A stretch of DNA of 64,000 bases from Escherichia coli. GTDB lineage: Bacteria > Pseudomonadota > Gammaproteobacteria > Enterobacterales > Enterobacteriaceae. The notes below the pieces were generated by a model, which made no database searches, was not told the DNA's origin, and saw only the letters and a program-made list of their open reading frames with translations. Numbering within the stretch: position 1 is the first letter of the stretch; every line of letters starts with the position of its first letter. Below, piece after piece: positions 33,745 through 46,741 of this stretch. Both the position numbers and the translations under genes were made by a program. The stretch is taken from assembly GCF_050920415.1 (NCBI RefSeq), contig NZ_CP169309.1. One strand, written 5' to 3'.

Positions 33745-33781
33745 AAATGCCCGGTCCTGACGATCGGGCATTTCCATTTTT
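33745..33781. terminator. Bidirectional rho-independent terminator between pitB and yghT
   Basis: 9-bp stem aaatgcccg / cgggcattt followed by T run. Confidence 0.6.
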
Positions 33782-33783
33782 GA

Positions 33784-34476
33784 CTAGTGATAACCACACG
33801 CGGTCATAAAATCCGTAATCGCTTTTTCTGCATCAACCAGCACCTTTTCCAGTGGCTGATTGGCGTCGATATCAACCAGTTGTGCACCACCAAAGGTTAA
33901 CTGTGGCGTTATGGCAATCTTTCTCGCCAGCGATTCCCGTTTATGGTCGGGTTTACGCGCGCAGGCAACTTCAAGGTCAACATTGAGTTTGATAACCAGA
34001 TCAGGCTTATGGCTCGCCATCCAGTGAAATGCTTTACGTTCCTGGCTTGCCAGCCATGAGACAAACCGGCCGCCTTCAACGTTAGGTGGGAACACCGTAC
34101 CATCGTAAGCGCCAGGAATTTGGTCCTGAGGATAACGATCGGTTAAGACAATCAGCCCGCGACGACGACAGGCGAGCATATGACGAAAGCGTAACAGTCG
34201 GCGGGCGACGAAAGCGGTGATCACCAGGGCCGGAACCGGACCCGGCAATTTTTTTGCCGTTTTCACTTCATTTTTTTCAATAGTCTTGTGCAGAGACTTT
34301 CCCATCAACGGTAATTTTGTCACTGCACGACCGACATTTCCGGCCTGTTTTCCTAAATGAACTCTTTCGGCAGCACCATATTTTTCGACAACGGTAATAA
34401 GATGTTCACACACCGTTGACTTGCCTGAACCATCGCTACCAATAACGGCAATTAATGGAGGTGTTATTGACTGCAT
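33784..34476 (-). CDS. yghT: P-loop kinase-like protein (Walker [14 protein letters not shown] motif; dTMP-kinase-like fold inferred)
   Basis: 230-aa ORF; paralogous to the next two genes. Confidence 0.85.
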
Positions 34477-34649
34477 GAATATATCCTTAAATTTAAATAT
34501 CCATCCAAAATATTTATTTGGTTAATATGTTTTTATGAAAGCGTAATTCAGGTCAATGTCACAATTAACCATTGTCACAATAAGGTTGAACGGATATTCT
34601 GAGCACGGACCACGTAATATTCAATACATTATTTGCTGCCGGGTTTTTC

Positions 34650-35363
34650 GTGAATCAACGTAATATGTCAATAATTAATTCCACGCCAGTGCGTGTTATT
34701 GCCATTGTAGGATGTGATGGTTCAGGTAAATCGACCCTCACGGCAAGCCTGGTAAATGAACTGGCAGCAACAATGCCAACAGAACACATTTATCTCGGGC
34801 AATCGTCCGGGCGAATTGGCGAATGGATTTCACAGCTCCCTGTTATTGGCGCACCTTTTGGGCGTTATCTGCGAAGTAAAGCGGCACATGTGCACGAAAA
34901 GCCCTCCACACCGCCTGGCAATATTACTGCGCTGGTTATCTATCTGCTTTCCTGCTGGCGGGCGTATAAGTTTCGCAAAATGTTGTGTAAAAGCCAGCAA
35001 GGCTATCTGCTCATCACCGACCGCTACCCGCAGGTTGAAGTGCCGGGTTTTCGCTTTGATGGCCCGCAACTGGCAAAAAACACGGGCGGTAACGGCTGGA
35101 TAAAAATGTTAAGACAGCGCGAGCTCAAACTTTACCAATGGATGGCGTCTTATTTGCCCGTATTGTTGATTCGTCTTGGCATTGATGAACAAACCGCGTT
35201 TGCGCGTAAACCTGACCACCAACTGGCGGCGTTACAGGAAAAAATCGCTGTTACGCCGCAACTGACATTCAATGGTGCAAAGATCCTTGAACTGGATGGT
35301 CGGCAACCCGCCGATGAAATTCTGCAAGCGTCACTACGCGCAATTCACGCCGCGCTTTCCTGA
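34650..35363 (+). CDS. yghS: P-loop kinase-like protein
   Basis: 237-aa ORF; GCDGSGKST and ITDRYP motifs. Confidence 0.85.
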   Translation: MNQRNMSIINSTPVRVIAIVGCDGSGKSTLTASLVNELAATMPTEHIYLGQSSGRIGEWISQLPVIGAPFGRYLRSKAAHVHEKPSTPPGNITALVIYLLSCWRAYKFRKMLCKSQQGYLLITDRYPQVEVPGFRFDGPQLAKNTGGNGWIKMLRQRELKLYQWMASYLPVLLIRLGIDEQTAFARKPDHQLAALQEKIAVTPQLTFNGAKILELDGRQPADEILQASLRAIHAALS

Positions 35364-35393
35364 TCACCAAATGGATAGGGGATGATTTAACGA

Positions 35394-36152
35394 ATGGATG
35401 CACTACAAACACAAACTGTTAATAGTACAACCGCGCCGCAGCCCAACTACATTCCGGGGCTGATTGCGGTGGTCGGGTGTGATGGCACCGGTAAATCCAC
35501 ACTGACCACTGACCTGGTGAAATCGCTGCAACAACACTGGCAAACCGAGCGCCGCTATCTGGGGCTGCTCTCCGGCGAAGACGGCGACAAAATCAAACGG
35601 TTGCCGCTCGTTGGCGTCTGGCTGGAACGGCGACTGGCGGCCAAATCCTCGAAAACCCAAAGCATGAAAACCAAATCTCCGGCGCTATGGGCGGCGGTGA
35701 TTATGTACTGCTTCTCGCTGCGAAGAATGGCGAATCTACGCAAGGTTCAGCGACTGGCGCAAAGTGGCGTTCTGGTGGTCAGCGATCGCTTCCCGCAGGC
35801 TGAAATTTCGGGCTTTTATTATGACGGACCGGGGATTGGCATCGAGCGTGCGACCGGGAAAATCAGCATGTTTCTGGCCCAGCGCGAACGGCGTTTATAC
35901 CAAAAAATGGCGCAATACCGTCCTGAATTAATTATTCGTTTGGGGATTGATATTGATACTGCCATCTCCCGCAAGCCTGACCATGACTATGCCGAGCTGC
36001 AGGACAAAATCGGTGTCATGTCGACGATTGGCTATAACGGCACAAAAATTCTTGAGATTGATTCCAGAGCGCCCTACAGCGAAGTGCTGGAACAGGCACA
36101 GAAGGCGGTTTCTCTGGTTGCAATCGTTTCTGACCGCCGAAGTTTAACTTAA
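35394..36152 (+). CDS. yghR: P-loop kinase-like protein
   Basis: 252-aa ORF; GCDGTGKST and VSDRFP motifs. Confidence 0.85.
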   Translation: MDALQTQTVNSTTAPQPNYIPGLIAVVGCDGTGKSTLTTDLVKSLQQHWQTERRYLGLLSGEDGDKIKRLPLVGVWLERRLAAKSSKTQSMKTKSPALWAAVIMYCFSLRRMANLRKVQRLAQSGVLVVSDRFPQAEISGFYYDGPGIGIERATGKISMFLAQRERRLYQKMAQYRPELIIRLGIDIDTAISRKPDHDYAELQDKIGVMSTIGYNGTKILEIDSRAPYSEVLEQAQKAVSLVAIVSDRRSLT

Positions 36153-36197: not shown

Positions 36198-37547
36198 TTG
36201 GCGGGGTTTAACATCAAACATTGGTTTGCAGATGGCGCGTTTCGCACCATTATTCGCAATAGCGCCTGGTTAGGCTCCAGTAATGTCGTGAGCGCTTTGC
36301 TGGGTCTGTTGGCGCTCTCGTGTGCCGGTAAAGGGATGACGCCCGCCATGTTTGGCGTACTGGTGATTGTGCAATCGTACGCCAAGTCGATCAGCGATTT
36401 TATTAAGTTTCAGACATGGCAGCTGGTGGTTCAGTACGGAACGCCAGCCTTGACCAATAATAATCCGCAGCAATTTCGCAATGTCGTCTCATTTTCCTTC
36501 TCGTTGGATATCGTCAGCGGCGCGGTGGCGATTGTCGGCGGCATTGCCTTACTCCCTTTTCTTTCCCATTCATTAGGTCTGGATGACCAAAGCTTTTGGC
36601 TGGCAGCGCTGTATTGCACGCTCATTCCTTCAATGGCTTCCTCCACACCGACCGGCATTCTGCGTGCAGTAGATCGCTTCGATTTGATTGCTGTACAGCA
36701 GGCGACGAAACCTTTTCTGCGCGCAGCGGGGAGCGTCGTAGCCTGGTATTTTGATTTTGGTTTTGCGGGTTTTGTTATTGCCTGGTACGCATCGAATCTG
36801 GTTGGCGGCACCATGTACTGGTGGTTTGCCGCGCGCGAATTACGCCGCAGAAATATCCATAACGCCTTCAAATTGAATCTGTTTGAGTCTGCCCGACACA
36901 TTAAAGGCGCGTGGAGTTTTGTCTGGTCAACCAACATTGCCCACTCCATCTGGTCGGCACGTAACTCGTGCAGCACAGTGTTGGTGGGGATCGTGTTAGG
37001 ACCCGCTGCCGCCGGGTTATTTAAAATCGCCATGACATTCTTCGATGCCGCCGGAACGCCAGCGGGTTTACTGGGCAAAAGTTTTTACCCAGAGGTGATG
37101 CGTTTAGATCCGCGTACCACCAGACCGTGGTTGTTAGGCGTGAAGTCCGGTTTACTGGCGGGCGGAATCGGTATTCTGGTGGCGCTCGCGGTGTTGATCG
37201 TCGGCAAGCCGCTCATTTCGCTGGTGTTTGGCGTTAAGTATCTCGAAGCGTATGACCTGATTCAGGTGATGCTTGGCGCAATTGTGATTTCGATGCTGGG
37301 CTTCCCACAGGAGTCATTGCTATTGATGGCGGGAAAACAGCGCGCTTTTCTCGTGGCGCAAACCATCGCCTCAATCGGCTACATCGTATTGCTGTTCATG
37401 TTCTGTCATCTGTTTGGCGTGCTGGGGGCTGCATTTGCTTACTTCGGTGGGCAATGTCTGGATGTGGTGCTCTCGTTAATTCCAACCTTAAAGGCATTTT
37501 TTCAGCGCCATTCCTTGCTTTATAACGCAGCCGGAGAGAAATCCTGA
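36198..37547 (+). CDS. yghQ: Polytopic inner-membrane protein, MOP/Wzx-like flippase family (putative lipid or polysaccharide flippase)
   Basis: 449-aa hydrophobic ORF; ORF-track start is TTG, so true start uncertain; synteny with yghRST. Confidence 0.75.
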   Translation: MAGFNIKHWFADGAFRTIIRNSAWLGSSNVVSALLGLLALSCAGKGMTPAMFGVLVIVQSYAKSISDFIKFQTWQLVVQYGTPALTNNNPQQFRNVVSFSFSLDIVSGAVAIVGGIALLPFLSHSLGLDDQSFWLAALYCTLIPSMASSTPTGILRAVDRFDLIAVQQATKPFLRAAGSVVAWYFDFGFAGFVIAWYASNLVGGTMYWWFAARELRRRNIHNAFKLNLFESARHIKGAWSFVWSTNIAHSIWSARNSCSTVLVGIVLGPAAAGLFKIAMTFFDAAGTPAGLLGKSFYPEVMRLDPRTTRPWLLGVKSGLLAGGIGILVALAVLIVGKPLISLVFGVKYLEAYDLIQVMLGAIVISMLGFPQESLLLMAGKQRAFLVAQTIASIGYIVLLFMFCHLFGVLGAAFAYFGGQCLDVVLSLIPTLKAFFQRHSLLYNAAGEKS

Positions 37548-38371
37548 TGATGAGAAAATATTTCCCGCTTGAGGCGAGCGAGCGTCTATTTATTGCAGTT
37601 GAAGAAGATGATGTCGTTGATGCGCAGGTCAGTTTACCGCCGACTATCGCAACAGGTTGTACCACCGAAATCATTCATGATAATTACGCGTTATGCCTGC
37701 AATTCTGGCTGAATGGCGTTGATCGTCAGGAATTACTGCGTTTAATCCACAAACAAGCCAAAGGCGAGGGGCTTACGGCTGACGAGCGTAAACAGTTTAA
37801 ATATATGCGGGCGCGTTATAAGCATCTACGTTTTGCCCAACGGTTGTATTTAAAAAAGCATCAGGCCGGATTTTTATTTGGCAAAACGACCGTTTTTCTT
37901 GGACGTTTTCAGGACGGCTTTCGTAACGGTAAGAAAAATATTGTGTCGTTTTACGGCAACCTTTTACGGATTTATTTAAGCTCTCCGGTCTAGTTGTTGG
38001 TGAACTATTCATTACGCCATAGCCAGTTAGAAAGCGTAAGCGGTTTTATTGCCTATCGGCAAAAGCAAATGCACCTCCTGAAAGAGATTATTGCCAAACC
38101 ACGGCTAACTGGCAGGGAATTTCATGATGTACGAAAAATAATCAGCCAGCAGGTTTCTTATTACGACACCCTAAGATCGCTTGATCCTGAAAATAAAGAA
38201 GCGTTACAGATTTCCCGCTTCCTCGCCGCCATTAATGGCCTGATGGGGGATAAACACGACGACATGGTGGCGGATGATATGGAAAACCGCCAGTCGTATG
38301 ATGCACCGATGGCGCTGGATAGCGATATTCGTCAGCGCTTAGAACTGCTGATTTCGCGTTTTCCGCTATAA
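37547..38371 (+). pseudogene. Hypothetical protein reading frame (275 codons) interrupted by a single in-frame TAG at 37991-37993; either a nonsense pseudogene or two adjacent ORFs
   Basis: ORF-track ORFs 37547-37993 and 37994-38371 are in the same frame and contiguous; start ATG overlaps the yghQ stop (TGATG). Confidence 0.4.
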
Positions 38372-38379
38372 CCGGAGCA

Positions 38380-38943
38380 ATGATGTCATCTCGTTTGATT
38401 ATTGCGCTGATTATCATGCTCTTAGCCCCGGGTGTGCAGGCGCACAATTTCGTCACTGGTAAAACGGTTACCCCTGTTTATATCCAGGAAGGCGGCGAGC
38501 TGCTTCTGAATAGCGACGACGAAATTCACTACCAAAAGTGGAACAGCACACAGCTGGCGGGAAAAGTCCGCATTATTCAGTATATCGCCGGGCGTAAGTC
38601 GGCGAAGAAAAAGAACTCACTGTTAATTAAAGCGGTTGAAGCGGCAAACTTTCCGCAGGATCGTTTTCAGCCCACCACCATTGTGAACACCGATGATGCC
38701 ATCTTTGGTACTGGCTATTTTGTCGTTGGCAAAATCGAAAAAAATAAACGCCGCTATCCGTGGGCGCAATTCGTTATTGACGGCAATGGACAGGGACGCG
38801 TTGTCTGGCGGTTGCCGGAGCAGAGTTCAACCATTCTGGTGCTGAATAAAGCCGGGCAAATTCAGTGGGCAAAGGACGGCAGCCTGACGCCGGAAGAGGT
38901 AGATCATGTCATTGCGCTGGCGCAGAAGCTGATCAATGAATAA
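38380..38943 (+). CDS. YtfJ-family periplasmic protein (signal peptide)
   Basis: 187-aa ORF; N-terminal signal MMSSRLIIALIIMLLAPGVQA; resembles E. coli YtfJ as I recall it. Confidence 0.6.
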   Translation: MMSSRLIIALIIMLLAPGVQAHNFVTGKTVTPVYIQEGGELLLNSDDEIHYQKWNSTQLAGKVRIIQYIAGRKSAKKKNSLLIKAVEAANFPQDRFQPTTIVNTDDAIFGTGYFVVGKIEKNKRRYPWAQFVIDGNGQGRVVWRLPEQSSTILVLNKAGQIQWAKDGSLTPEEVDHVIALAQKLINE

Positions 38944-38973: not shown

Positions 38974-40044
38974 ATGAAGCTGGTTGAACACTACATCATG
39001 CGTGGTACGCGCCGTCTGGTGCTGATTATCGTCGGTTTTCTGATCTTTATTTTCGCCAGCTACTCCGCACAGCGTTATCTGACCGAAGCGGCAAATGGGA
39101 CATTAGCTCTTGATGTTGTGCTGGATATTGTTTTCTACAAGGTGCTGATTGCACTGGAGATGTTGTTACCTGTTGGACTGTATGTGTCAGTTGGCGTGAC
39201 GCTAGGGCAGATGTATACCGACTCGGAAATTACCGCTATTTCTGCGGCGGGGGGGAGTCCGGGACGCTTGTACAAAGCCGTTCTTTATCTGGCGATACCG
39301 CTAAGTATTTTTGTCACCCTTCTGTCGATGTATGGTCGTCCGTGGGCTTATGCGCAGATTTATCAACTGGAGCAACAGTCGCAGTCGGAGCTGGATGTTC
39401 GCCAGTTGCGGGCAAAGAAATTTAACACTAACGATAACGGACGAATGATCCTTTCGCAGACGGTTGATCAGGATAATAATCGCCTGACTGACGTGCTGAT
39501 TTATACTTCTACTGCCAATCGAACCCGTATTTTCCGCGCCCGTTCGGTTGATGTAGTTGACCCATCACCCGAGAAACCGACCGTTATGTTGCATAACGGG
39601 ACCGCCTATCTTCTCGATCATCAGGGGCGTGACGACAACGAACAGATCTACCGTAATCTGCAATTGCATCTGAATCCGCTGGATCAAAGCCCTAACGTCA
39701 AACGCAAAGCAAAATCGGTCACGGAGCTGGCGCGCTCCGCCTTTCCTGCCGATCATGCCGAACTGCAATGGCGACAAAGCCGTGGCCTGACAGCATTGTT
39801 GATGGCGCTGCTGGCCATTTCATTAAGTCGGGTAAAACCGCGGCAAGGGCGATTTTCAACGTTATTGCCACTGACGTTGCTGTTTGTTGCCATTTTTTAT
39901 GGCGGCGACGTCTGCCGTACGCTGGTGGCTAACGGCGCGATTCCCCTCATTCCTGGTTTGTGGTTAGTACCCGGACTCATGCTAATGGGCCTGCTGATGC
40001 TGGTCGCACGCGACTTCTCTTTGCTGCAGAAATTTTCCCGATGA
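38974..40044 (+). CDS. LptF-like permease (YjgP/YjgQ family) paralog
   Basis: 356-aa ORF; N-terminal TM then large periplasmic segment then C-terminal TMs, the LptF/LptG architecture. Confidence 0.7.
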   Translation: MKLVEHYIMRGTRRLVLIIVGFLIFIFASYSAQRYLTEAANGTLALDVVLDIVFYKVLIALEMLLPVGLYVSVGVTLGQMYTDSEITAISAAGGSPGRLYKAVLYLAIPLSIFVTLLSMYGRPWAYAQIYQLEQQSQSELDVRQLRAKKFNTNDNGRMILSQTVDQDNNRLTDVLIYTSTANRTRIFRARSVDVVDPSPEKPTVMLHNGTAYLLDHQGRDDNEQIYRNLQLHLNPLDQSPNVKRKAKSVTELARSAFPADHAELQWRQSRGLTALLMALLAISLSRVKPRQGRFSTLLPLTLLFVAIFYGGDVCRTLVANGAIPLIPGLWLVPGLMLMGLLMLVARDFSLLQKFSR

Positions 40045-41120
40045 ATGTTTTCAGTCGCTATTTAATTCGTCATCTCTTTCTCGGTTTTGCCGCCGCCGCA
40101 GGGCTATTGCTGCCGCTCTTTACCACCTTCAACCTGATTAACGAACTGGATGATGTCAGCCCGGGTGGTTATCGCTGGACTCAGGCGGTGCTGGTGGTGC
40201 TGATGACCTTACCGCGCACACTGGTCGAACTTTCGCCGTTTATCGCCTTATTGGGAGGGATTGTCGGCCTGGGGCAGTTATCGAAAAACAGTGAGCTTAC
40301 CGCCATTCGCAGCACGGGGTTTTCTATCTTCCGTATTGCACTGGTGGCGCTGGTTGCCGGGATATTGTGGACTGTTTCATTAGGCACGATAGATGAGTGG
40401 GTGGCGTCGCCATTGCAGCAACAGGCGCTGCAAATCAAATCGACTGCCACTGCGTTGGGGGAGGACGATGACATTACCGGCAATATGCTGTGGGCCAGGC
40501 GTGGTAATGAATTTGTGACGGTGAAATCGCTGAACGAGCAGGGCCAGCCGGTGGGCGTGGAGATATTTCATTACCGCGACGATCTCTCGCTCGAATCCTA
40601 CATTTATGCACGCAGTGCCACCATTGAAGACGACAAAACGTGGATCCTGCATGGTGTGAATCATAAAAAATGGCTGAATGGCAAAGAAACGCTGGAAACA
40701 TCTGATAATCTTGCCTGGCAATCGGCCTTCACCAGTATGAATCTTGAAGAGTTATCGATGCCGGGAAATACTTTTTCTGTCCGTCAACTTAATCATTACA
40801 TCCATTATTTGCAGGAAACCGGGCAACCCAGCAGCGAATACCGCTTTGCACTGTGGGAAAAACTGGGACAACCCATCTTGACCCTTGCGATGATTTTGCT
40901 GGCTGTGCCGTTTACCTTTAGTGCCCCGCGTTCGCCTGGGATGGGTAGCCGTCTCGCTGTAGGCGTCATCGTGGGGTTACTCACCTGGAGCAGCTATCAA
41001 ATCATGGTCAATCTGGGATTGCTATTTGCGTTGAGCGCACCTGTTACCGCGCTCGGTTTACCGATAGCGTTTATGCTGGTGGCGTTGAGCCTGGTGTATT
41101 GGTATGACAGTCAACATTAA
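40041..41120 (+). CDS. LptG-like permease (YjgP/YjgQ family) paralog
   Basis: Start at ATGA overlap with upstream gene (MNVFSRYLIRHL); same architecture; 359 aa. Confidence 0.7.
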   Translation: MNVFSRYLIRHLFLGFAAAAGLLLPLFTTFNLINELDDVSPGGYRWTQAVLVVLMTLPRTLVELSPFIALLGGIVGLGQLSKNSELTAIRSTGFSIFRIALVALVAGILWTVSLGTIDEWVASPLQQQALQIKSTATALGEDDDITGNMLWARRGNEFVTVKSLNEQGQPVGVEIFHYRDDLSLESYIYARSATIEDDKTWILHGVNHKKWLNGKETLETSDNLAWQSAFTSMNLEELSMPGNTFSVRQLNHYIHYLQETGQPSSEYRFALWEKLGQPILTLAMILLAVPFTFSAPRSPGMGSRLAVGVIVGLLTWSSYQIMVNLGLLFALSAPVTALGLPIAFMLVALSLVYWYDSQH

Positions 41121-41154: not shown

Positions 41155-42327
41155 TTACTGCTTCAGAGTAGCAAATGCCTGAATGATGGCATCGATTTGC
41201 TCACGAGTGTGGGCAGCGTTTACGCTACAGCGCAGCAGCGTGATGCCTGCAGGCGCGGCAGGTGGCAGGATAAGATTCACATAAACGCCCAGCGAAATAA
41301 GCTCGCGCCAGATGCGTAAACCTTCCTCTTTCGAACCGATTATTACTGGCACTACCGGGCTAATATGTGAACTTAACTCGTAACCCAGTTTTTGCAGACC
41401 GTCATACAGATGGCTGGCGTTATCCATCAGCTTTTGCCGCAACTCTGGTTGTGAGGCAATGGTTCTTAACGACGAGCGCACGGTCGCAATGCAGGACGGA
41501 GAAGGAGAGGCGGTAAAAATATACGGGCGGCTGCCGTAGCGCAGCACTTCCATCGCTTCCGAACCGACAGCAAAACCGCCAATCGAGGCCAGACTTTTAC
41601 TGAAAGTACCAACGATAATATCCACATCATCTTCAACGCCAACGGCTTCAGCCAGTCCGCGCCCCGTTGCGCCTAACACGCCAAACGAATGCGCTTCATC
41701 GACAATCAAATAACCACCGAGACGACGTTTGATATCAACAATTTCCGCCAGCGGCGCAACGTCACCGAGCATACTGTAGATGCCTTCAACGATGATAATC
41801 GCCTCTTTTGCCCGTTCACCGAGGCGAACCATGCGCCGTTCCAGATCTTTAGCATCGTTATGGCGGAAACGAATAATTTCCGCTCCACCGAGAGAACAGG
41901 CGTCATAAATACTGGCGTGGCTATCGGCATCCAGTAACACCACGGCGTTATGGTCGGCAAGTGCGCTGATGACACCTAAATTAGCGGTATAACCGGTTGA
42001 AAAAACGATAGCGGTAGGGCGATTGAAAAACTCGGCAATCTCTTTCTCTAACGCCAGATGTGGCGCATAGCTGCCATTAGCCATACGAGAACCGGTAGTG
42101 CCGGTGCCTTGTGCCGCTAATGCTGCCTGACCTTCGGTGATGGCATCATGATTGAAAGTTAAACCGAGATAATTATTAGTCCCGGCCAGAATCACTTTTT
42201 TATTGCCGATACGGCCTTCAGTGGCGGAGTACACTTCATCAATACAGGTACCAAACGGCGTTAATCCGTTGTCACTAAATTGCAGTCGCTCGCCAGCAAG
42301 GCGCGCATATTTATCGTATAGCCCCAT
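41155..42327 (-). CDS. PLP-dependent alpha-oxoamine synthase (serine palmitoyltransferase / BioF / Kbl family)
   Basis: 390-aa ORF; conserved VDEAHSFGVLG and PLP-lysine GTFSKSL motifs. Confidence 0.8.
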   Translation of the reverse strand: MGLYDKYARLAGERLQFSDNGLTPFGTCIDEVYSATEGRIGNKKVILAGTNNYLGLTFNHDAITEGQAALAAQGTGTTGSRMANGSYAPHLALEKEIAEFFNRPTAIVFSTGYTANLGVISALADHNAVVLLDADSHASIYDACSLGGAEIIRFRHNDAKDLERRMVRLGERAKEAIIIVEGIYSMLGDVAPLAEIVDIKRRLGGYLIVDEAHSFGVLGATGRGLAEAVGVEDDVDIIVGTFSKSLASIGGFAVGSEAMEVLRYGSRPYIFTASPSPSCIATVRSSLRTIASQPELRQKLMDNASHLYDGLQKLGYELSSHISPVVPVIIGSKEEGLRIWRELISLGVYVNLILPPAAPAGITLLRCSVNAAHTREQIDAIIQAFATLKQ

Positions 42328-42575
42328 TATTTATTCTCCAGCCATGGAAGTAGAGTTTCCATTAATTGCGCAGGGGTTTTGACATCCAGCAGAATATTAA
42401 TAGGAATGGAAATATCGAATCTGTCTTCCAGCATCATTAAGAGATCCATCACTTTGATCGACTCCAGGCCAAGATCGTTGACGAGATCGCTGTCGGGCTT
42501 AATTTCCACACCGTTTTCGACCAAATCCTGTAAACAGGAAAGGATGTAATCCATTACTATTTCACGATTTACCAT
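42327..42575 (-). CDS. Acyl carrier protein (dedicated, not housekeeping acpP)
   Basis: 82-aa acidic ORF with phosphopantetheine-attachment-like motif DLGLESIKVMDL. Confidence 0.75.
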   Translation of the reverse strand: MVNREIVMDYILSCLQDLVENGVEIKPDSDLVNDLGLESIKVMDLLMMLEDRFDISIPINILLDVKTPAQLMETLLPWLENK

Positions 42576-42606: not shown

Positions 42607-43521
42607 TCAAAATAGCCCGCTGCGTAATGCGTGTTCCAGGCTAATCCCGGGAAACCAATTAATATCTTCAGAAATACGGTTATTACTTGCTGACCAGTCG
42701 GCGTGGGTTAATTCACGGATTTTCGAGCGGGTCAGCATAGGTTCTTTACCTGCCAGGCGACTCAACGCGGTACTGATATCCGCAAGGCAGGTGAGTACCG
42801 ACAGAGGAATACCAACCATTCGAACGGAACCGCAACGGGCGTCGGCGGCAAGTTGCTGTACGCGTTGCCAGTCATAGCCGCCGGCGACGCCATCGCATAA
42901 TTCATAGGTTTGCGTTTGTACAGTTTCGGCGCTTAACCACTGCCCCACGGCTTGCGCGAAATCGGTGACGTGCAGGAAAGAGAGCTGTGTATCTGGCGCA
43001 CCAAGTCGTGGCAGCAGGCCGCGCAGCATCCAGCCAAACAGCGGTTTTAACTCTTTATCGCCGGGACCATACACGGCTGTCGGGCGAAAAATGCCCAGCG
43101 TAATTTCGTCAGCCATTGCGGTCAGTCGTTGTTCGGCGACGTGTTTGGAATTTGCGTACCAGGAGAGTTCGGGATGGCGCGCCGCCAGCGAAGAGATAAA
43201 CAGAAAACGTTGGCAAAAGCCGCTCTCTTTTGCCGCTTGCATCAGGCGCAGGCTGCCGTCAACGTTACAGCGGGTAAAAATCTCTTCTTTGTGTCCGCGC
43301 ACTTGCCCGGCGCAATGGACCACCGCGCTGGCTCCGGCAACCAGTTCGCTAAGCGAATGTGTATCTTCCAGCGAACCGCGCACCCAGATGAGATTATCAT
43401 TGACGTGAGCGCGGGCAGTACGCGTCAATGCGCGAACGTGAAAGCCGCGGGCGAGCAGGTTATCGATAATATATTTACCGATAAACCCGGTAGCGCCCGT
43501 CACCGCGACAGTTTGATTCAT
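42607..43521 (-). CDS. NAD(P)-dependent epimerase/dehydratase-family (extended SDR) oxidoreductase; candidate 3-keto reductase
   Basis: 304-aa ORF; N-terminal Rossmann motif VTGATGFIG. Confidence 0.75.
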   Translation of the reverse strand: MNQTVAVTGATGFIGKYIIDNLLARGFHVRALTRTARAHVNDNLIWVRGSLEDTHSLSELVAGASAVVHCAGQVRGHKEEIFTRCNVDGSLRLMQAAKESGFCQRFLFISSLAARHPELSWYANSKHVAEQRLTAMADEITLGIFRPTAVYGPGDKELKPLFGWMLRGLLPRLGAPDTQLSFLHVTDFAQAVGQWLSAETVQTQTYELCDGVAGGYDWQRVQQLAADARCGSVRMVGIPLSVLTCLADISTALSRLAGKEPMLTRSKIRELTHADWSASNNRISEDINWFPGISLEHALRSGLF

Positions 43522-45236
43522 GCCATGGATTCCTGCACATGAAGGCTTGCAGCATAACGTTTTTTCGCTTCCGCACGGGCAGGCTTGCCGGAGGACGTTC
43601 GGGGAATACTGTGGGGCGGCAACAGATCGATAGCCGCTGTTACGCCAAATTCGCTTTGGATCCGTGCTGCCAGTGCGTGGATAAGCTGCCCACGACGTTC
43701 TTCGTCGCTGATCCTACACTGGATCTGCAAAATGATTTTTTCCTGGGCGGTAACAAAAGCAATCGCATCGCCAGAATGAATTTCCGGTTCCTGTTCCGCA
43801 ATATATTCAATATCCTGCGGCCAGATATTACGGCCACGAATAATAATCAGATCTTTAATGCGCCCGGTGACATACAGATAACCATCCAGCAGATAACCGA
43901 GGTCGCCGGTATCTAACCAGCCCGTCGCGGCAATCTCGTCTTGCGAAACCTGGTCGCCAAAGTAACCGCTCATCAGGCTGGGGCCGGAGATGCAAATATG
44001 GCCTACCACACGTTCCGCGACCGGCATACCTGCTTCATTGCGGATTTCAATGCCATGTTCCGGCAACGCTTTACCGCAGTTGACGAAAGTCGATACGGCG
44101 CGTGTTTCAGCACCCGGCGCGACGGCTTTGCCCTGATATTCAAGGATGTCGCGATCCACTTCGTTAACCACAACCCCGGAGGCTTCATCAGAGAAGCTGA
44201 CAGCCAGCGCATTTTCTGCCAGTCCGTAGCACGGCATGAAAGTTTTATCGTCAAAGTTAACCTGACGGAAACATTCAGCAAATTGGTGGAGTTGTTCTGC
44301 GGAGATGGGTTCTGCGCCAATACCAGCGACGCGCCAGCACGAGAGATCCAGTTCAGCGAGATCTTTTTCATTCACGCGGCGCTGACACAATTCATAGCCA
44401 AACGGCGGCGCGACGGAAACTGTGCCACGATTTTTACTGATCAATTTAAGCCATTGCAGCGGACGCATGGCAAAATCCTGAGTGCGCAAATAATCTACTG
44501 AGAGCTGCGTGGCGACGGGGGTCAGGAGAAAGCCGACCAGTCCCATATCATGGTAGAAAGGCAGCCAGGAGACGCAGCGGTCGCCAGGGCGTAATTTAAT
44601 GCCATCGTGGCTTATAGCACGTAGATTAGCCATCACTTCGCGATGGGTGATAATGACGCCACGGGGAAAACGGGTGCTGCCGGAGGTGTACTGGAGGTAG
44701 GCGATATCGTTCGGAACTGGACGCTGGAGTACAACATCGGCTTCCGGTAATGCCTTAAACCAGGCGTGGCTTAAAACATGTAATTCGGGGTTGTTATGCG
44801 TAGCAGCATTGACCAGTGGCAACCACTCATCACCAGTGATAATGGCTGCGGGCTGGCAACTAGCCAGTAAACCTTGCAGTTTAGCGCTCCAGGAATCCCG
44901 CTGACCGACGCCCATTGGAATCGCTAACGGGACGGCGACTAAGCCGGCATACTGGCAGGCAAAAAAAGCCTCTACAAACCCGCTACTCGTTTCGGCAATC
45001 AGCGCCACGCGATCGCCTTTTTTCAGATTTAGTGATAACAACCGCTTCGCACCAGCTTCGGCACACGCTTTTAACGTCTGATATTCCAGTTGATCTTCAA
45101 GTTGGCAACGTCTGTCATAAAAATTCATTCCGGCGCTACTCAGAGCGGCGTAGTCCAAAGCATCAACCAGCGTTGGAAAATCGGCATAGCGCATAGGTAG
45201 GGAATGCGTAAAGATGTTATTAGACATATACACCAC
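43518..45236 (-). CDS. Fatty acyl-AMP ligase / acyl-ACP synthetase (AMP-binding superfamily)
   Basis: 572-aa ORF; AMP-binding signature YTSGSTRFPRGV; overlaps downstream reductase gene by 4 nt. Confidence 0.8.
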   Translation of the reverse strand: MVYMSNNIFTHSLPMRYADFPTLVDALDYAALSSAGMNFYDRRCQLEDQLEYQTLKACAEAGAKRLLSLNLKKGDRVALIAETSSGFVEAFFACQYAGLVAVPLAIPMGVGQRDSWSAKLQGLLASCQPAAIITGDEWLPLVNAATHNNPELHVLSHAWFKALPEADVVLQRPVPNDIAYLQYTSGSTRFPRGVIITHREVMANLRAISHDGIKLRPGDRCVSWLPFYHDMGLVGFLLTPVATQLSVDYLRTQDFAMRPLQWLKLISKNRGTVSVAPPFGYELCQRRVNEKDLAELDLSCWRVAGIGAEPISAEQLHQFAECFRQVNFDDKTFMPCYGLAENALAVSFSDEASGVVVNEVDRDILEYQGKAVAPGAETRAVSTFVNCGKALPEHGIEIRNEAGMPVAERVVGHICISGPSLMSGYFGDQVSQDEIAATGWLDTGDLGYLLDGYLYVTGRIKDLIIIRGRNIWPQDIEYIAEQEPEIHSGDAIAFVTAQEKIILQIQCRISDEERRGQLIHALAARIQSEFGVTAAIDLLPPHSIPRTSSGKPARAEAKKRYAASLHVQESMA

Positions 45237-45598: not shown

Positions 45599-46741
45599 AT
45601 GGAATGCGATCTGCTGATGATTAAAATTGAAAAAGTAATTAATAAAAATGACCTTAAGGCATTTATCGCTTTTCCGTCATCACTTTATCCCGATGATCCA
45701 AACTGGATACCCCCTTTGTTCATTGAACGCAGCGAGCATTTGTCGGCGAAGAATCCGGGGACGGACCATATTATCTGGCAGGCGTGGGTAGCAAAAAAAG
45801 CGGGGCAGATAGTCGGGCGGATTACCGCGCAAATCGATACCTTGCACCGCGAGCGTTACGGTGACGATACCGGTCATTTCGGCATGATTGACGCCATTGA
45901 TGATCCGCAGGTTTTTGCCGCGTTGTTTGGCGCAGCGGAAGCGTGGTTGAAGTCACAAGGTGCAAGTAAGATCAGCGGGCCTTTCAGCCTGAATATCAAT
46001 CAGGAAAGCGGATTACTGATTGAAGGTTTCGACACTCCGCCCTGTGCGATGATGCCGCACGGTAAACCGTGGTATGCCGCGCATATTGAACAATTGGGTT
46101 ATCACAAAGGTATTGATTTACTGGCGTGGTGGATGCAACGAACCGATCTCACTTTCTCTCCGGCGCTAAAAAAACTGATGGATCAGGTGCGCAAAAAGGT
46201 GACCATTCGCTGCATCAAGCGCCAGCGGTTTGCCGAAGAGATGCTGATCCTGCGTGAGATTTTCAACTCTGGCTGGCAGCACAACTGGGGATTTGTGCCG
46301 TTTACCGAACATGAATTCGCTACCATGGGCGATCAACTAAAGTATCTGGTACCGGACGATATGATCTACGTCGCCGAGATTGATTCTGCTCCCTGCGCGT
46401 TTATAGTCGGCTTGCCGAACATCAACGAGGCGATTGCCGATCTGAACGGAGCGCTCTTTCCCTTCGGCTGGGCAAAATTGCTGTGGCGCTTAAAAGTCAG
46501 CGGTGTGCGAACTGCGCGAGTGCCGCTGATGGGCGTGCGTGACGAGTATCAGTTCAGCCGCATCGGCCCGGTGATTGCGCTGTTATTGATTGAAGCCTTA
46601 CGCGATCCGTTTGCTCGCCGGAAGATCGATGCGCTGGAAATGTCATGGATCCTCGAAACCAATACAGGCATGAATAACATGCTGGAACGCATTGGAGCGG
46701 AGCCGTACAAGCGTTACCGATTGTATGAAAAGCAGATTTGA
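45599..46741 (+). CDS. yghO: YghO, intact; putative GNAT-like acyltransferase (family assignment tentative)
   Basis: 380-aa uninterrupted ORF; synteny next to glcC; K-12 yghO is an annotated pseudogene as I recall. Confidence 0.7.
   Translation: MECDLLMIKIEKVINKNDLKAFIAFPSSLYPDDPNWIPPLFIERSEHLSAKNPGTDHIIWQAWVAKKAGQIVGRITAQIDTLHRERYGDDTGHFGMIDAIDDPQVFAALFGAAEAWLKSQGASKISGPFSLNINQESGLLIEGFDTPPCAMMPHGKPWYAAHIEQLGYHKGIDLLAWWMQRTDLTFSPALKKLMDQVRKKVTIRCIKRQRFAEEMLILREIFNSGWQHNWGFVPFTEHEFATMGDQLKYLVPDDMIYVAEIDSAPCAFIVGLPNINEAIADLNGALFPFGWAKLLWRLKVSGVRTARVPLMGVRDEYQFSRIGPVIALLLIEALRDPFARRKIDALEMSWILETNTGMNNMLERIGAEPYKRYRLYEKQI

Follow-up and report, generated by a model that had tools for sequence, protein, structure and literature searches.

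In a 64,000-nucleotide stretch of Escherichia coli DNA (contig NZ_CP169309.1, assembly GCF_050920415.1; hereafter the window), the genes yghT, yghS and yghR encode three P-loop kinases of the thymidylate kinase (Tmk) fold that, together with the MOP-superfamily flippase YghQ and a predicted CHAD-fold protein, make up a conserved five-gene module. This module is often linked at the operon level to genes for ceramide synthesis and for LptF2G2 export. Set in a functional context that is also new, the trio of kinases represents a new branch among the Tmk-type kinases, and its members are probably dedicated to a sphingolipid module.

Kinase family and motifs

A preliminary description of the window had placed three tandem paralogous genes at 33784-36152. 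Open reading frames (ORFs) were found at these positions, in agreement with the RefSeq coding sequences of the near-identical genome NZ_CP169399.1:

33784-34476, minus strand: yghT, 230-amino-acid Tmk-fold P-loop kinase of orthogroup T (ORF and RefSeq coding sequence; isoelectric point 9.6)
34650-35363, plus strand: yghS, 237-amino-acid Tmk-fold P-loop kinase of orthogroup S
35394-36152, plus strand: yghR, 252-amino-acid Tmk-fold P-loop kinase of orthogroup R

Pairwise BLASTP alignment confirmed that the three proteins are paralogous, with identities of 37% between YghT and YghS (E = 4e-55), 34% between YghT and YghR (5e-47) and 43% between YghS and YghR (1e-62). The motifs reported earlier were also present. 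A Walker A motif of the form G[SC]DG[ST]GKST was located at residue 13 of YghT (GSDGSGKST), residue 21 of YghS (GCDGSGKST) and residue 28 of YghR (GCDGTGKST), and was followed at a spacing of 100 to 103 residues by DRYP at 113 in YghT, DRYP at 124 in YghS and DRFP at 131 in YghR. An RKPDH motif is common to all three. A motif search for the ATP-binding cassette (ABC) signature [LFY]SGG[QEM] was negative in YghT, YghS and YghR, and the matches of these proteins to ABC families spanned just about 25 residues at the P-loop. The trio has the Tmk fold with its P-loop, DRX motif and LID; the original view of these proteins as nucleoside monophosphate (NMP) kinase-like proteins and not ABC ATPases was therefore upheld.

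RefSeq names the three proteins dTMP kinases. Their best family match was the dTMP kinase model TIGR00041 of NCBIfam (E = 1.5e-7 to 1.6e-5), with scores of 25.7 bits for YghT, 24.7 for YghS and 31.3 for YghR, about one-third of the curated cut-off of 83.25. The Pfam family Thymidylate_kin (PF02223) matched YghT with an independent E-value of 0.019, and nothing in Pfam fell below an E-value of 0.01 for the trio. In Tmk, an R-E-P-G-G stretch after beta-2 binds dTMP. The HMMER alignment set the KREPGG of Tmk against YLGkssG in the trio family, and the REPGG position is occupied in an orthogroup-specific manner by HLGKQ, YLGQSS or YLGL-x-S. Because the scores are below threshold and the stretch facing REPGG is replaced, the trio belongs to the thymidylate kinase superfamily but is not dTMP kinase proper, and the RefSeq product name is unsupported, a widespread misannotation. 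The trio further differs from Tmk in its extra motifs (PQ after DRY, [YF]DG and RKPDH), in its strongly basic character and in its occurrence as three fixed orthogroups with lipid genes.

Two properties of the family bear on its substrate. Tmk-fold enzymes use the DRX arginine to clamp donor and acceptor at their terminal phosphates (PMC12995831), which favors a phosphate-bearing acceptor. In addition, orthogroups T, S and R have median isoelectric points of 9.7 to 10.0 and a minimum of 8.6; such basic proteins fit work at an anionic membrane surface or on a polyanionic substrate.

Three ancient orthogroups

When 1.84 billion representative proteins were searched with a profile, 2172 relatives emerged, 141 of them below an E-value of 1e-30, and a scan of one genome per species identified 79 loci with YghS orthologues of 48 to 95% identity. 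These loci were found in Enterobacterales (Escherichia, Pseudocitrobacter, Hafnia, Serratia, Pantoea, Erwinia, Rahnella, Sodalis and others), Xanthomonadales (Rhodanobacter and Luteibacter), Betaproteobacteria (Nitrotoga, Gallionellaceae and Rhodocyclaceae), Sphingomonadales and Acetobacter. Further loci came from metagenome-assembled genomes of myxobacterial or deltaproteobacterial type and from one labeled Planctomycetota. By tblastn, almost every locus contained one T-like, one S-like and one R-like copy. In almost all loci, R came after S in the same orientation, and the arrangement seen in E. coli, with T on the minus and S and R on the plus strand, was found in 52 of 80 loci.

A neighbor-joining tree of 224 kinase sequences, rooted with fusion-type relatives, resolved nearly pure clades (T, 70 of 70; S, 78 of 80; R, 74 plus one). 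Since these clades are clean across 79 species, the trio is an old set of three orthogroups. The genes had been described as triplicated, a word that points to local duplication; what was found is not a recent duplication, and the three orthogroups carry distinct residues on the acceptor side.

All 224 sequences retain GxDGxGK[ST], DR[YF]PQ, D137-G, E158, R186-K-P-D-H and K198 (YghS numbering, here and below), and R125, the DRX arginine, is invariant across T, S and R. With the catalytic motifs kept throughout, no member of the trio is a degenerate regulatory copy. Each orthogroup also has invariant residues of its own: K51, Q52, N55, R103 and R107 in T; Q51, S52, S53 and W103 in S; and L51, E55 and E194 in R. 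By analogy with Tmk, the positions concerned, which lie immediately behind beta-2 and on the basic helix that precedes beta-3, are likely to form the acceptor site. The presence of group-specific invariant residues there implies three active enzymes that would act on three different acceptors.

Natural fusions were also identified. A single ORF of about 496 amino acids joins S and R in two Nitrotoga genomes (locus L048, 9866-11356, and locus L051), and the metagenomic protein P0121, another S-R fusion, occurs on 5 contigs inside an spt cluster. In protein P0122, a T-like domain is fused to an S/R-like kinase domain. Its neighbors are a CHAD-like gene (E = 5e-63 to the CHAD-fold alignment) and genes for a flippase of the Polysacc_synt family and for a His_Phos_1 phosphatase of the SixA/PhoE superfamily; this region (locus L082, 8001-12745) lies beside dTDP-rhamnose genes, with no spt within 8 kb.

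Linkage to sphingolipid, flippase and export genes

Partner genes were sought by tblastn with the window proteins in the fetched flanks, which extended at most 10 kb. The association with a lipid synthesis and export locus proposed in the preliminary description proved to be conserved beyond E. coli: at least one ceramide synthesis gene was found in 49 of the 79 loci, and at least three in 46. A YghQ-like flippase was present in 60 of 79, the CHAD-fold gene in 52, lptF2/G2 in 35 and any partner gene in 69. Thus, the trio does not fall into a well-characterized nucleotide kinase family devoid of lipid association in other species, given its subthreshold family scores and the frequency of its lipid linkage.

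The order of the partners varies among lineages. In Rhodanobacter, S, R, a 2-hydroxylase of the OlsC/LpxO type, aasR, cerR, acpR, spt, yghQ and the CHAD-fold gene lie on one strand, so that the kinase genes share an operon with the ceramide genes, and T is divergent. This lipid acyl 2-hydroxylase gene is directly 3' of the yghR orthologue in 19 loci (e.g., L034, 11490-12248, and L013, 11530-12276) and occurs in many nonenterobacterial loci, but not in that of E. coli. In sphingomonads and Acetobacter, an S-R-T-yghQ unit, in some cases with the CHAD-fold gene, stands without adjoining sphingolipid genes, which in these organisms are known to be dispersed. In the Pseudomonas-labeled locus L013, a lipid kinase of the diacylglycerol (DAG) kinase/YegS type with a GGDG motif, resembling CpgB of Caulobacter, is directly upstream of S (8816-9877), and similar GGDG lipid kinases are near the trio in L050 (2736-3635) and L069 (13262-14236). 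Since three loci carry both, a CpgB-type kinase and the trio can coexist, and the adjacency fits a trio that acts after the first phosphorylation of ceramide.

The locus in the window

The genes that surround the trio in the window were as follows:

34477-34649, no strand: intergenic region between the divergent yghT and yghS, presumed promoter region
36198-37547, plus strand: yghQ-like MOP-superfamily flippase, 449 amino acids, weak NCBIfam match to the MOP flippase family
37547-38371, plus strand: CHAD-fold protein gene (annotated as hypothetical), 274 amino acids, with an in-frame TAG at 37991-37993 here
38383-38943, plus strand: YtfJ-family periplasmic protein gene (TIGR01626, 209 bits; cut-off, 151)
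38974-40044, plus strand: lptF2, second copy of a lipopolysaccharide (LPS) export permease (TIGR04407, 323 bits)
40041-41120, plus strand: lptG2, second copy of an LPS export permease (TIGR04408, 304 bits)
41155-42327, minus strand: spt, ceramide core operon (RefSeq annotation)
42327-42575, minus strand: acpR, acyl carrier protein, ceramide core operon (RefSeq annotation)
42607-43521, minus strand: cerR-like NAD-dependent reductase, ceramide core operon (RefSeq annotation)
43518-45227, minus strand: aasR, acyl-ACP (acyl carrier protein) synthetase, ceramide core operon (RefSeq: fatty acyl-AMP ligase)
45599-46741, plus strand: yghO, bCerS-type N-acyltransferase

The genes hybG, yghU, gss and pitB precede yghT, and glcC follows yghO. 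Over positions 27000-52000, the window and NZ_CP169399.1 differ at two bases only, 29137 (in yghU) and 37992. As described previously, one kinase gene is divergent and two are co-oriented with the flippase and permease genes: yghS, yghR, the yghQ-like gene, the CHAD-fold gene, the ytfJ-like gene, lptF2 and lptG2 share one strand. They are separated by gaps of 30, 45, -1, 8, 30 and -4 bases, and because these gaps are short, yghS to lptG2 looks like one operon. A scan of the region for promoters and terminators gave counts no higher than in shuffled sequence. A sigma-70-like match lies in the yghT-yghS intergenic region (plus strand, 34572-34600), where such matches are not above chance for the region. 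A strong hairpin with a 12-bp stem at 33745-33773, between the convergent ends of pitB and yghT, is likely a bidirectional terminator, although terminator-like sites in the region are not above chance overall.

The earlier term "lipid synthesis and export locus" was right as to lipid and can be made more exact, since the genes concerned (spt, acpR, cerR, aasR and yghO/bCerS) are those of sphingolipid synthesis (PMC9386255). A complete locus of the Rhodobacteria type, including second copies of lptF and lptG, is clustered here. The Spt, AcpR and AasR proteins of E. coli BL21 have been characterized biochemically and make 3-oxo-sphinganine, and yghO has been equated with CC_1154 (aca/bCerS) (PMC9386255). 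A 2026 preprint draws the E. coli UTI89 version of the locus as a sphingolipid locus with LptF2/G2, and reports that the Caulobacter homologues of LptF2 and LptG2 are needed for sphingolipid transport, with LptB as the ATPase (bioRxiv 10.64898/2026.04.12.717747). The YtfJ-family gene, between the CHAD-fold gene and lptF2, accompanied the trio in 36 of 79 loci, in Enterobacterales only; its product may be a stand-in for LptC2, which is found only in Caulobacter. No glycosyltransferase, CDP-alcohol transferase or Cpg-type gene was present among the annotated genes of the E. coli locus. Since it holds no other type of head-group gene, the trio and the CHAD-fold protein are its sole candidate head-group enzymes.

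The CHAD-fold neighbor

The 274-amino-acid product of the gene downstream of yghQ had no sequence match in Pfam, NCBIfam or the Protein Data Bank (PDB), and on fold only it is assigned as a predicted CHAD-fold protein. It has the two four-helix bundles of that fold, and Foldseek returned a CHAD match with an E-value of 0.16, a probability of 0.92 and a template modeling (TM) score of 0.43. Across 31 family members with identities down to 30%, H93, H105, H193, H237, R60, R88, K92, R95, R196 and K197 are invariant, in keeping with the conserved histidines and basic residues of CHAD proteins, and the isoelectric point is 9.3. The Pfam CHAD model PF05235 matched 1 of the 31 homologues (E = 0.06), and one UniRef cluster names a homologue as a CHAD protein. 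An internal sequence repeat was not significant (E = 0.21). Homology to the N-terminal NTP_transf_5 domain of the fusion-type relatives was considered and rejected (hhalign probability, 0.8%). CHAD domains are specific polyphosphate-binding modules (PMC6537752), and a CHAD-fold neighbor points to phosphate-chain chemistry.

In the window, a G-to-A change at 37992 converts a tryptophan codon (TGG) of this gene to TAG; the closest genome has TGG. The 61-base stretch containing the TAG had an exact match in 0 of 5426 complete E. coli genomes, and 2474 differed from it, at 95 to 99% identity. The TAG is either a nonsense allele private to this strain, in which case it may impair the trio module here, or the product of a sequencing error.

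Distribution in E. coli

Of 5426 complete E. coli genomes, 4604 contain the trio at a coverage of at least 80%, and 4057 (~75%) contain the 13-kb region spanning the lipid genes. In a K-12 MG1655 derivative (locus L083, 7200-9430), an IS5 element marks a deletion extending from the 3' part of yghQ through aasR, which leaves yghT, yghS, yghR, a truncated yghQ and yghO as orphans of the locus. This loss of the locus probably explains why K-12 studies have not provided a function for the trio. In the literature searched, yghR, yghS, yghT and yghQ appeared just in strain tables, at a peak for FlhDC binding in systematic evolution of ligands by exponential enrichment (SELEX), and as yghQ variants in chlorhexidine-adapted K-12, with no function given. 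The SELEX peak falls between yghS and yghT. No relevant paper emerged when bacterial sphingolipids were searched together with thymidylate or P-loop kinases, and in the searched literature we found no structure or description of an E. coli sphingolipid and no paper that assigned the trio a function or noted the module of trio, CHAD protein and flippase.

Comparison with known systems

A close parallel to the locus as a whole is found in Caulobacter, with which E. coli shares the ceramide core genes (spt, acpR, cerR, aasR and bCerS), a MOP-type flippase (CC_1166) and lptF2/lptG2. Caulobacter makes a ceramide-phosphoglycerate lipid, an anionic sphingolipid that can substitute for LPS functions (PMC11324152, PMC10331486, bioRxiv 10.64898/2026.04.12.717747). 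This lipid is also the target of polymyxin. The two loci differ in the remaining genes: no P-loop kinase or CHAD protein is encoded among the 17 genes CC_1152 to CC_1168, whereas loci of the E. coli type contain none of the Cpg genes, and the trio and the CHAD-fold gene take their place. CpgB is DAG kinase-like, with sphingosine kinase domains and a GGDG motif (PMC10331486); the trio, with its P-loop and Tmk fold, has no such DAG kinase domain. Homology of YghT, YghS and YghR to CpgA, CpgB and CpgC was rejected, since CpgA is a CDP-alcohol transferase, CC_1161 is Tam41-like, CC_1152 and CC_1153 are nucleotidyltransferases, and none of these or CpgB is a P-loop protein. The other Caulobacter head-group genes include a phosphoesterase.

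The trio locus also resembles that of PPK3 in Sulfolobus, in which two adjacent Tmk-type paralogues (Saci_2019/2020) are encoded with a CHAD protein, SixA and ppx and the acceptor is a phosphate chain (PMC12995831). In both cases, adjacent Tmk-fold paralogues that are misannotated as dTMP kinases lie next to a CHAD-type protein. However, there are three paralogues in the trio, as opposed to two in PPK3, all are catalytically intact, and none corresponds to the arginine-less regulatory subunit of PPK3. The neighbors differ as well: ppx and sixA in the case of PPK3, and a MOP flippase, lptF2G2 and sphingolipid genes in that of the trio. No ppx, sixA or pst gene was found in the E. coli locus, and one His_Phos_1 gene was found in L082.

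A sister family of about 500 amino acids has a C-terminal domain homologous to YghS (E of about 1e-45 to 1e-30) with the motifs DRYPQ, DG and RKPxH. In contrast to the trio, it carries an N-terminal nucleotidyltransferase domain (PF14907, NTP_transf_5), falls outside the T, S and R clades and neighbors glycosyltransferase, Wzy and sulfation genes rather than sphingolipid genes. It adjoins or is fused with a MOP flippase, and since such distant relatives share this association, partnership with a MOP flippase is a trait of the wider family. Members include P0163, P0169, P0172, P0215 and P0253, and some carry a MOP flippase or a GT4 glycosyltransferase as a further fused part. In locus L084 (5721-12048), a sister-family gene lies between a Wzx flippase and GT4/Wzy genes, near genes for ATP sulfurylase and sulfotransferase. 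A 249-amino-acid P-loop protein beside P0169 resembles the family over 28 residues only.

LpxK, the lipid A 4'-kinase, provides a precedent for a P-loop kinase with a membrane lipid as its substrate; it acts at the cytoplasmic face before flipping and Lpt export.

Proposed role and alternatives

The preliminary description had suggested a lipid head group or intermediate as the kinase substrate, and the genomic context leads us to propose a lipid head group as the acceptor. It is plausible, although far from settled, that the trio, YghQ and the CHAD-fold protein form a module that decorates the sphingolipid made by spt, acpR, cerR, aasR and yghO, by the following mechanism. The three enzymes, all of them basic, would catalyze three different phosphoryl transfers on the cytoplasmic side of the inner membrane, by which the trio would install or, more probably, extend a phosphate head group, turning ceramide-phosphate into the di- or oligophosphate. 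The phosphate chain would be bound by the CHAD-fold protein, YghQ would flip the anionic lipid, and LptF2G2 with LptB would extract the lipid for export to the outer membrane. Here, we infer the acceptor, the order of the steps and the product. The specific oligophosphate chemistry of the head group is a tentative and rather doubtful element. In its widest form, the proposal would be that E. coli (about three quarters of strains) and many other Proteobacteria make an outer-membrane ceramide with a di-, tri- or oligophosphate (phosphoanhydride) head group, built stepwise by three kinases with a CHAD chaperone that holds the phosphate chain, a MOP flippase that handles the lipid like a lipid-pyrophosphate substrate, and LptF2G2 export; we regard this as speculative and, in full, unlikely.

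Several observations weigh against a role in sphingolipid decoration. With no CpgB-like kinase encoded in the E. coli locus, the first phosphate would need to come from a trio member able to phosphorylate a hydroxyl or from a kinase encoded elsewhere. In Wzx/Wzy polysaccharide clusters, more remote relatives occur as fusions with NTP_transf_5 domains, MOP flippases or GT4 glycosyltransferases, so the family may originally have been partnered with a flippase or a glycan and not with a sphingolipid. No partner gene was found within 10 kb in 10 of 79 loci, and the Nitrotoga S-R fusion lies amid housekeeping genes (ilvBNC, an extracytoplasmic function [ECF] sigma factor gene and guaA) with no lipid or flippase gene nearby. 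The Pfam CHAD model did not match the E. coli 274-amino-acid protein even at an E-value of 10. Finally, the searched literature contained no biochemical or lipidomic support, with yghR, yghS and yghT mentioned just incidentally.

The similarity to PPK3 raises the alternative that the trio is a soluble polyphosphate kinase that, with the CHAD-fold protein, makes or consumes free polyphosphate and is linked to the lipid genes indirectly, for example through phosphate supply, pitB being adjacent. We consider this improbable. All three paralogues keep the DRX arginine that is absent from the regulatory PPK3 subunit, and the trio has no specific sequence closeness to PPK3 (2plr/5h70): its profile matched ordinary Tmks at 5.7e-11, but 2plr at just 1e-4 and over the P-loop only. 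Among the loci inspected, ppx, ppk and pst were not seen, and the 10 of 79 loci in which pitB adjoins the trio all belong to close relatives of E. coli. Nor would free polyphosphate metabolism explain why, in different classes, the trio is so tightly linked within operons to spt, the flippase and lptF2G2.

A similarly small chance attaches to hydroxyl-directed kinases of the deoxynucleoside kinase (dNK) type. Each enzyme would act on a separate hydroxyl of the sphingolipid (C1-OH, C3-OH or the acyl 2-OH), or else on a head-group precursor in soluble form before its attachment to the lipid. dNKs carry an ERS motif where Tmk has DR[YF], and the trio has the Tmk form. The E. coli locus lacks both a transferase to attach a soluble precursor and the hydroxylase, and this alternative does not explain the CHAD-fold partner.

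The three proteins could instead assemble into a single hetero-oligomeric enzyme, or into an S-R pair that works with T, and catalyze just one reaction, with the paralogues serving assembly or regulation. The near-constant adjacency of S and R, the natural S-R fusions (both Nitrotoga genomes and P0121) and T-S/R fusion (P0122), and the oligomeric state of Tmks and PPK3 (PMC12995831) are in its favor. However, complete active sites are kept by all three paralogues in 224 of 224 sequences, and a complex could also carry out three separate reactions; we regard the single-reaction model as slightly less probable again.

Two further alternatives are poorly supported. The P-loop proteins share an operon with the permeases, and some homologues are named "ABC-type transport ATPase component" by the Joint Genome Institute (JGI), as would be expected if the trio supplied the missing ATPase activity for the LptF2G2 permease or for YghQ. 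This is very unlikely: the trio has an NMP kinase fold and not that of an ABC nucleotide-binding domain, lacks the ABC signature with ABC matches limited to the P-loop, and has no lptF2G2 nearby in 44 of 79 loci. In addition, MOP flippases do not use ATP to drive transport, and Caulobacter LptF2G2 binds the housekeeping LptB. Least likely of all is that the genes encode extra dTMP or other nucleotide kinases unrelated to the lipid genes, as the RefSeq names, the best family match and the fold would have it, since the scores are far under the TIGR00041 cut-off, the Pfam match reaches just E = 0.019, orthogroup-specific [HY]LG motifs replace the segment aligned to REPGG, and the linkage to sphingolipid genes is conserved.

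Bacterial sphingolipids have only lately been recognized as widespread outer-membrane lipids. Most E. coli strains carry a complete locus for sphingolipid synthesis and export, yet one that lacks every known head-group enzyme. Sphingolipid decoration by the trio module would pinpoint the likely head-group machinery as three nonredundant Tmk-fold kinases, a CHAD-fold protein and a flippase, a module common to Enterobacterales, Xanthomonadales, Betaproteobacteria, sphingomonads, Acetobacter and genomes of myxobacterial type. The trio also extends the recent finding that Tmk paralogues beside CHAD proteins carry out phosphate-chain chemistry. If E. coli does make a ceramide oligophosphate, this would be a new class of lipid, a polyanion that is neither glycerol-based nor LPS and that arises independently of the Caulobacter Cpg route.

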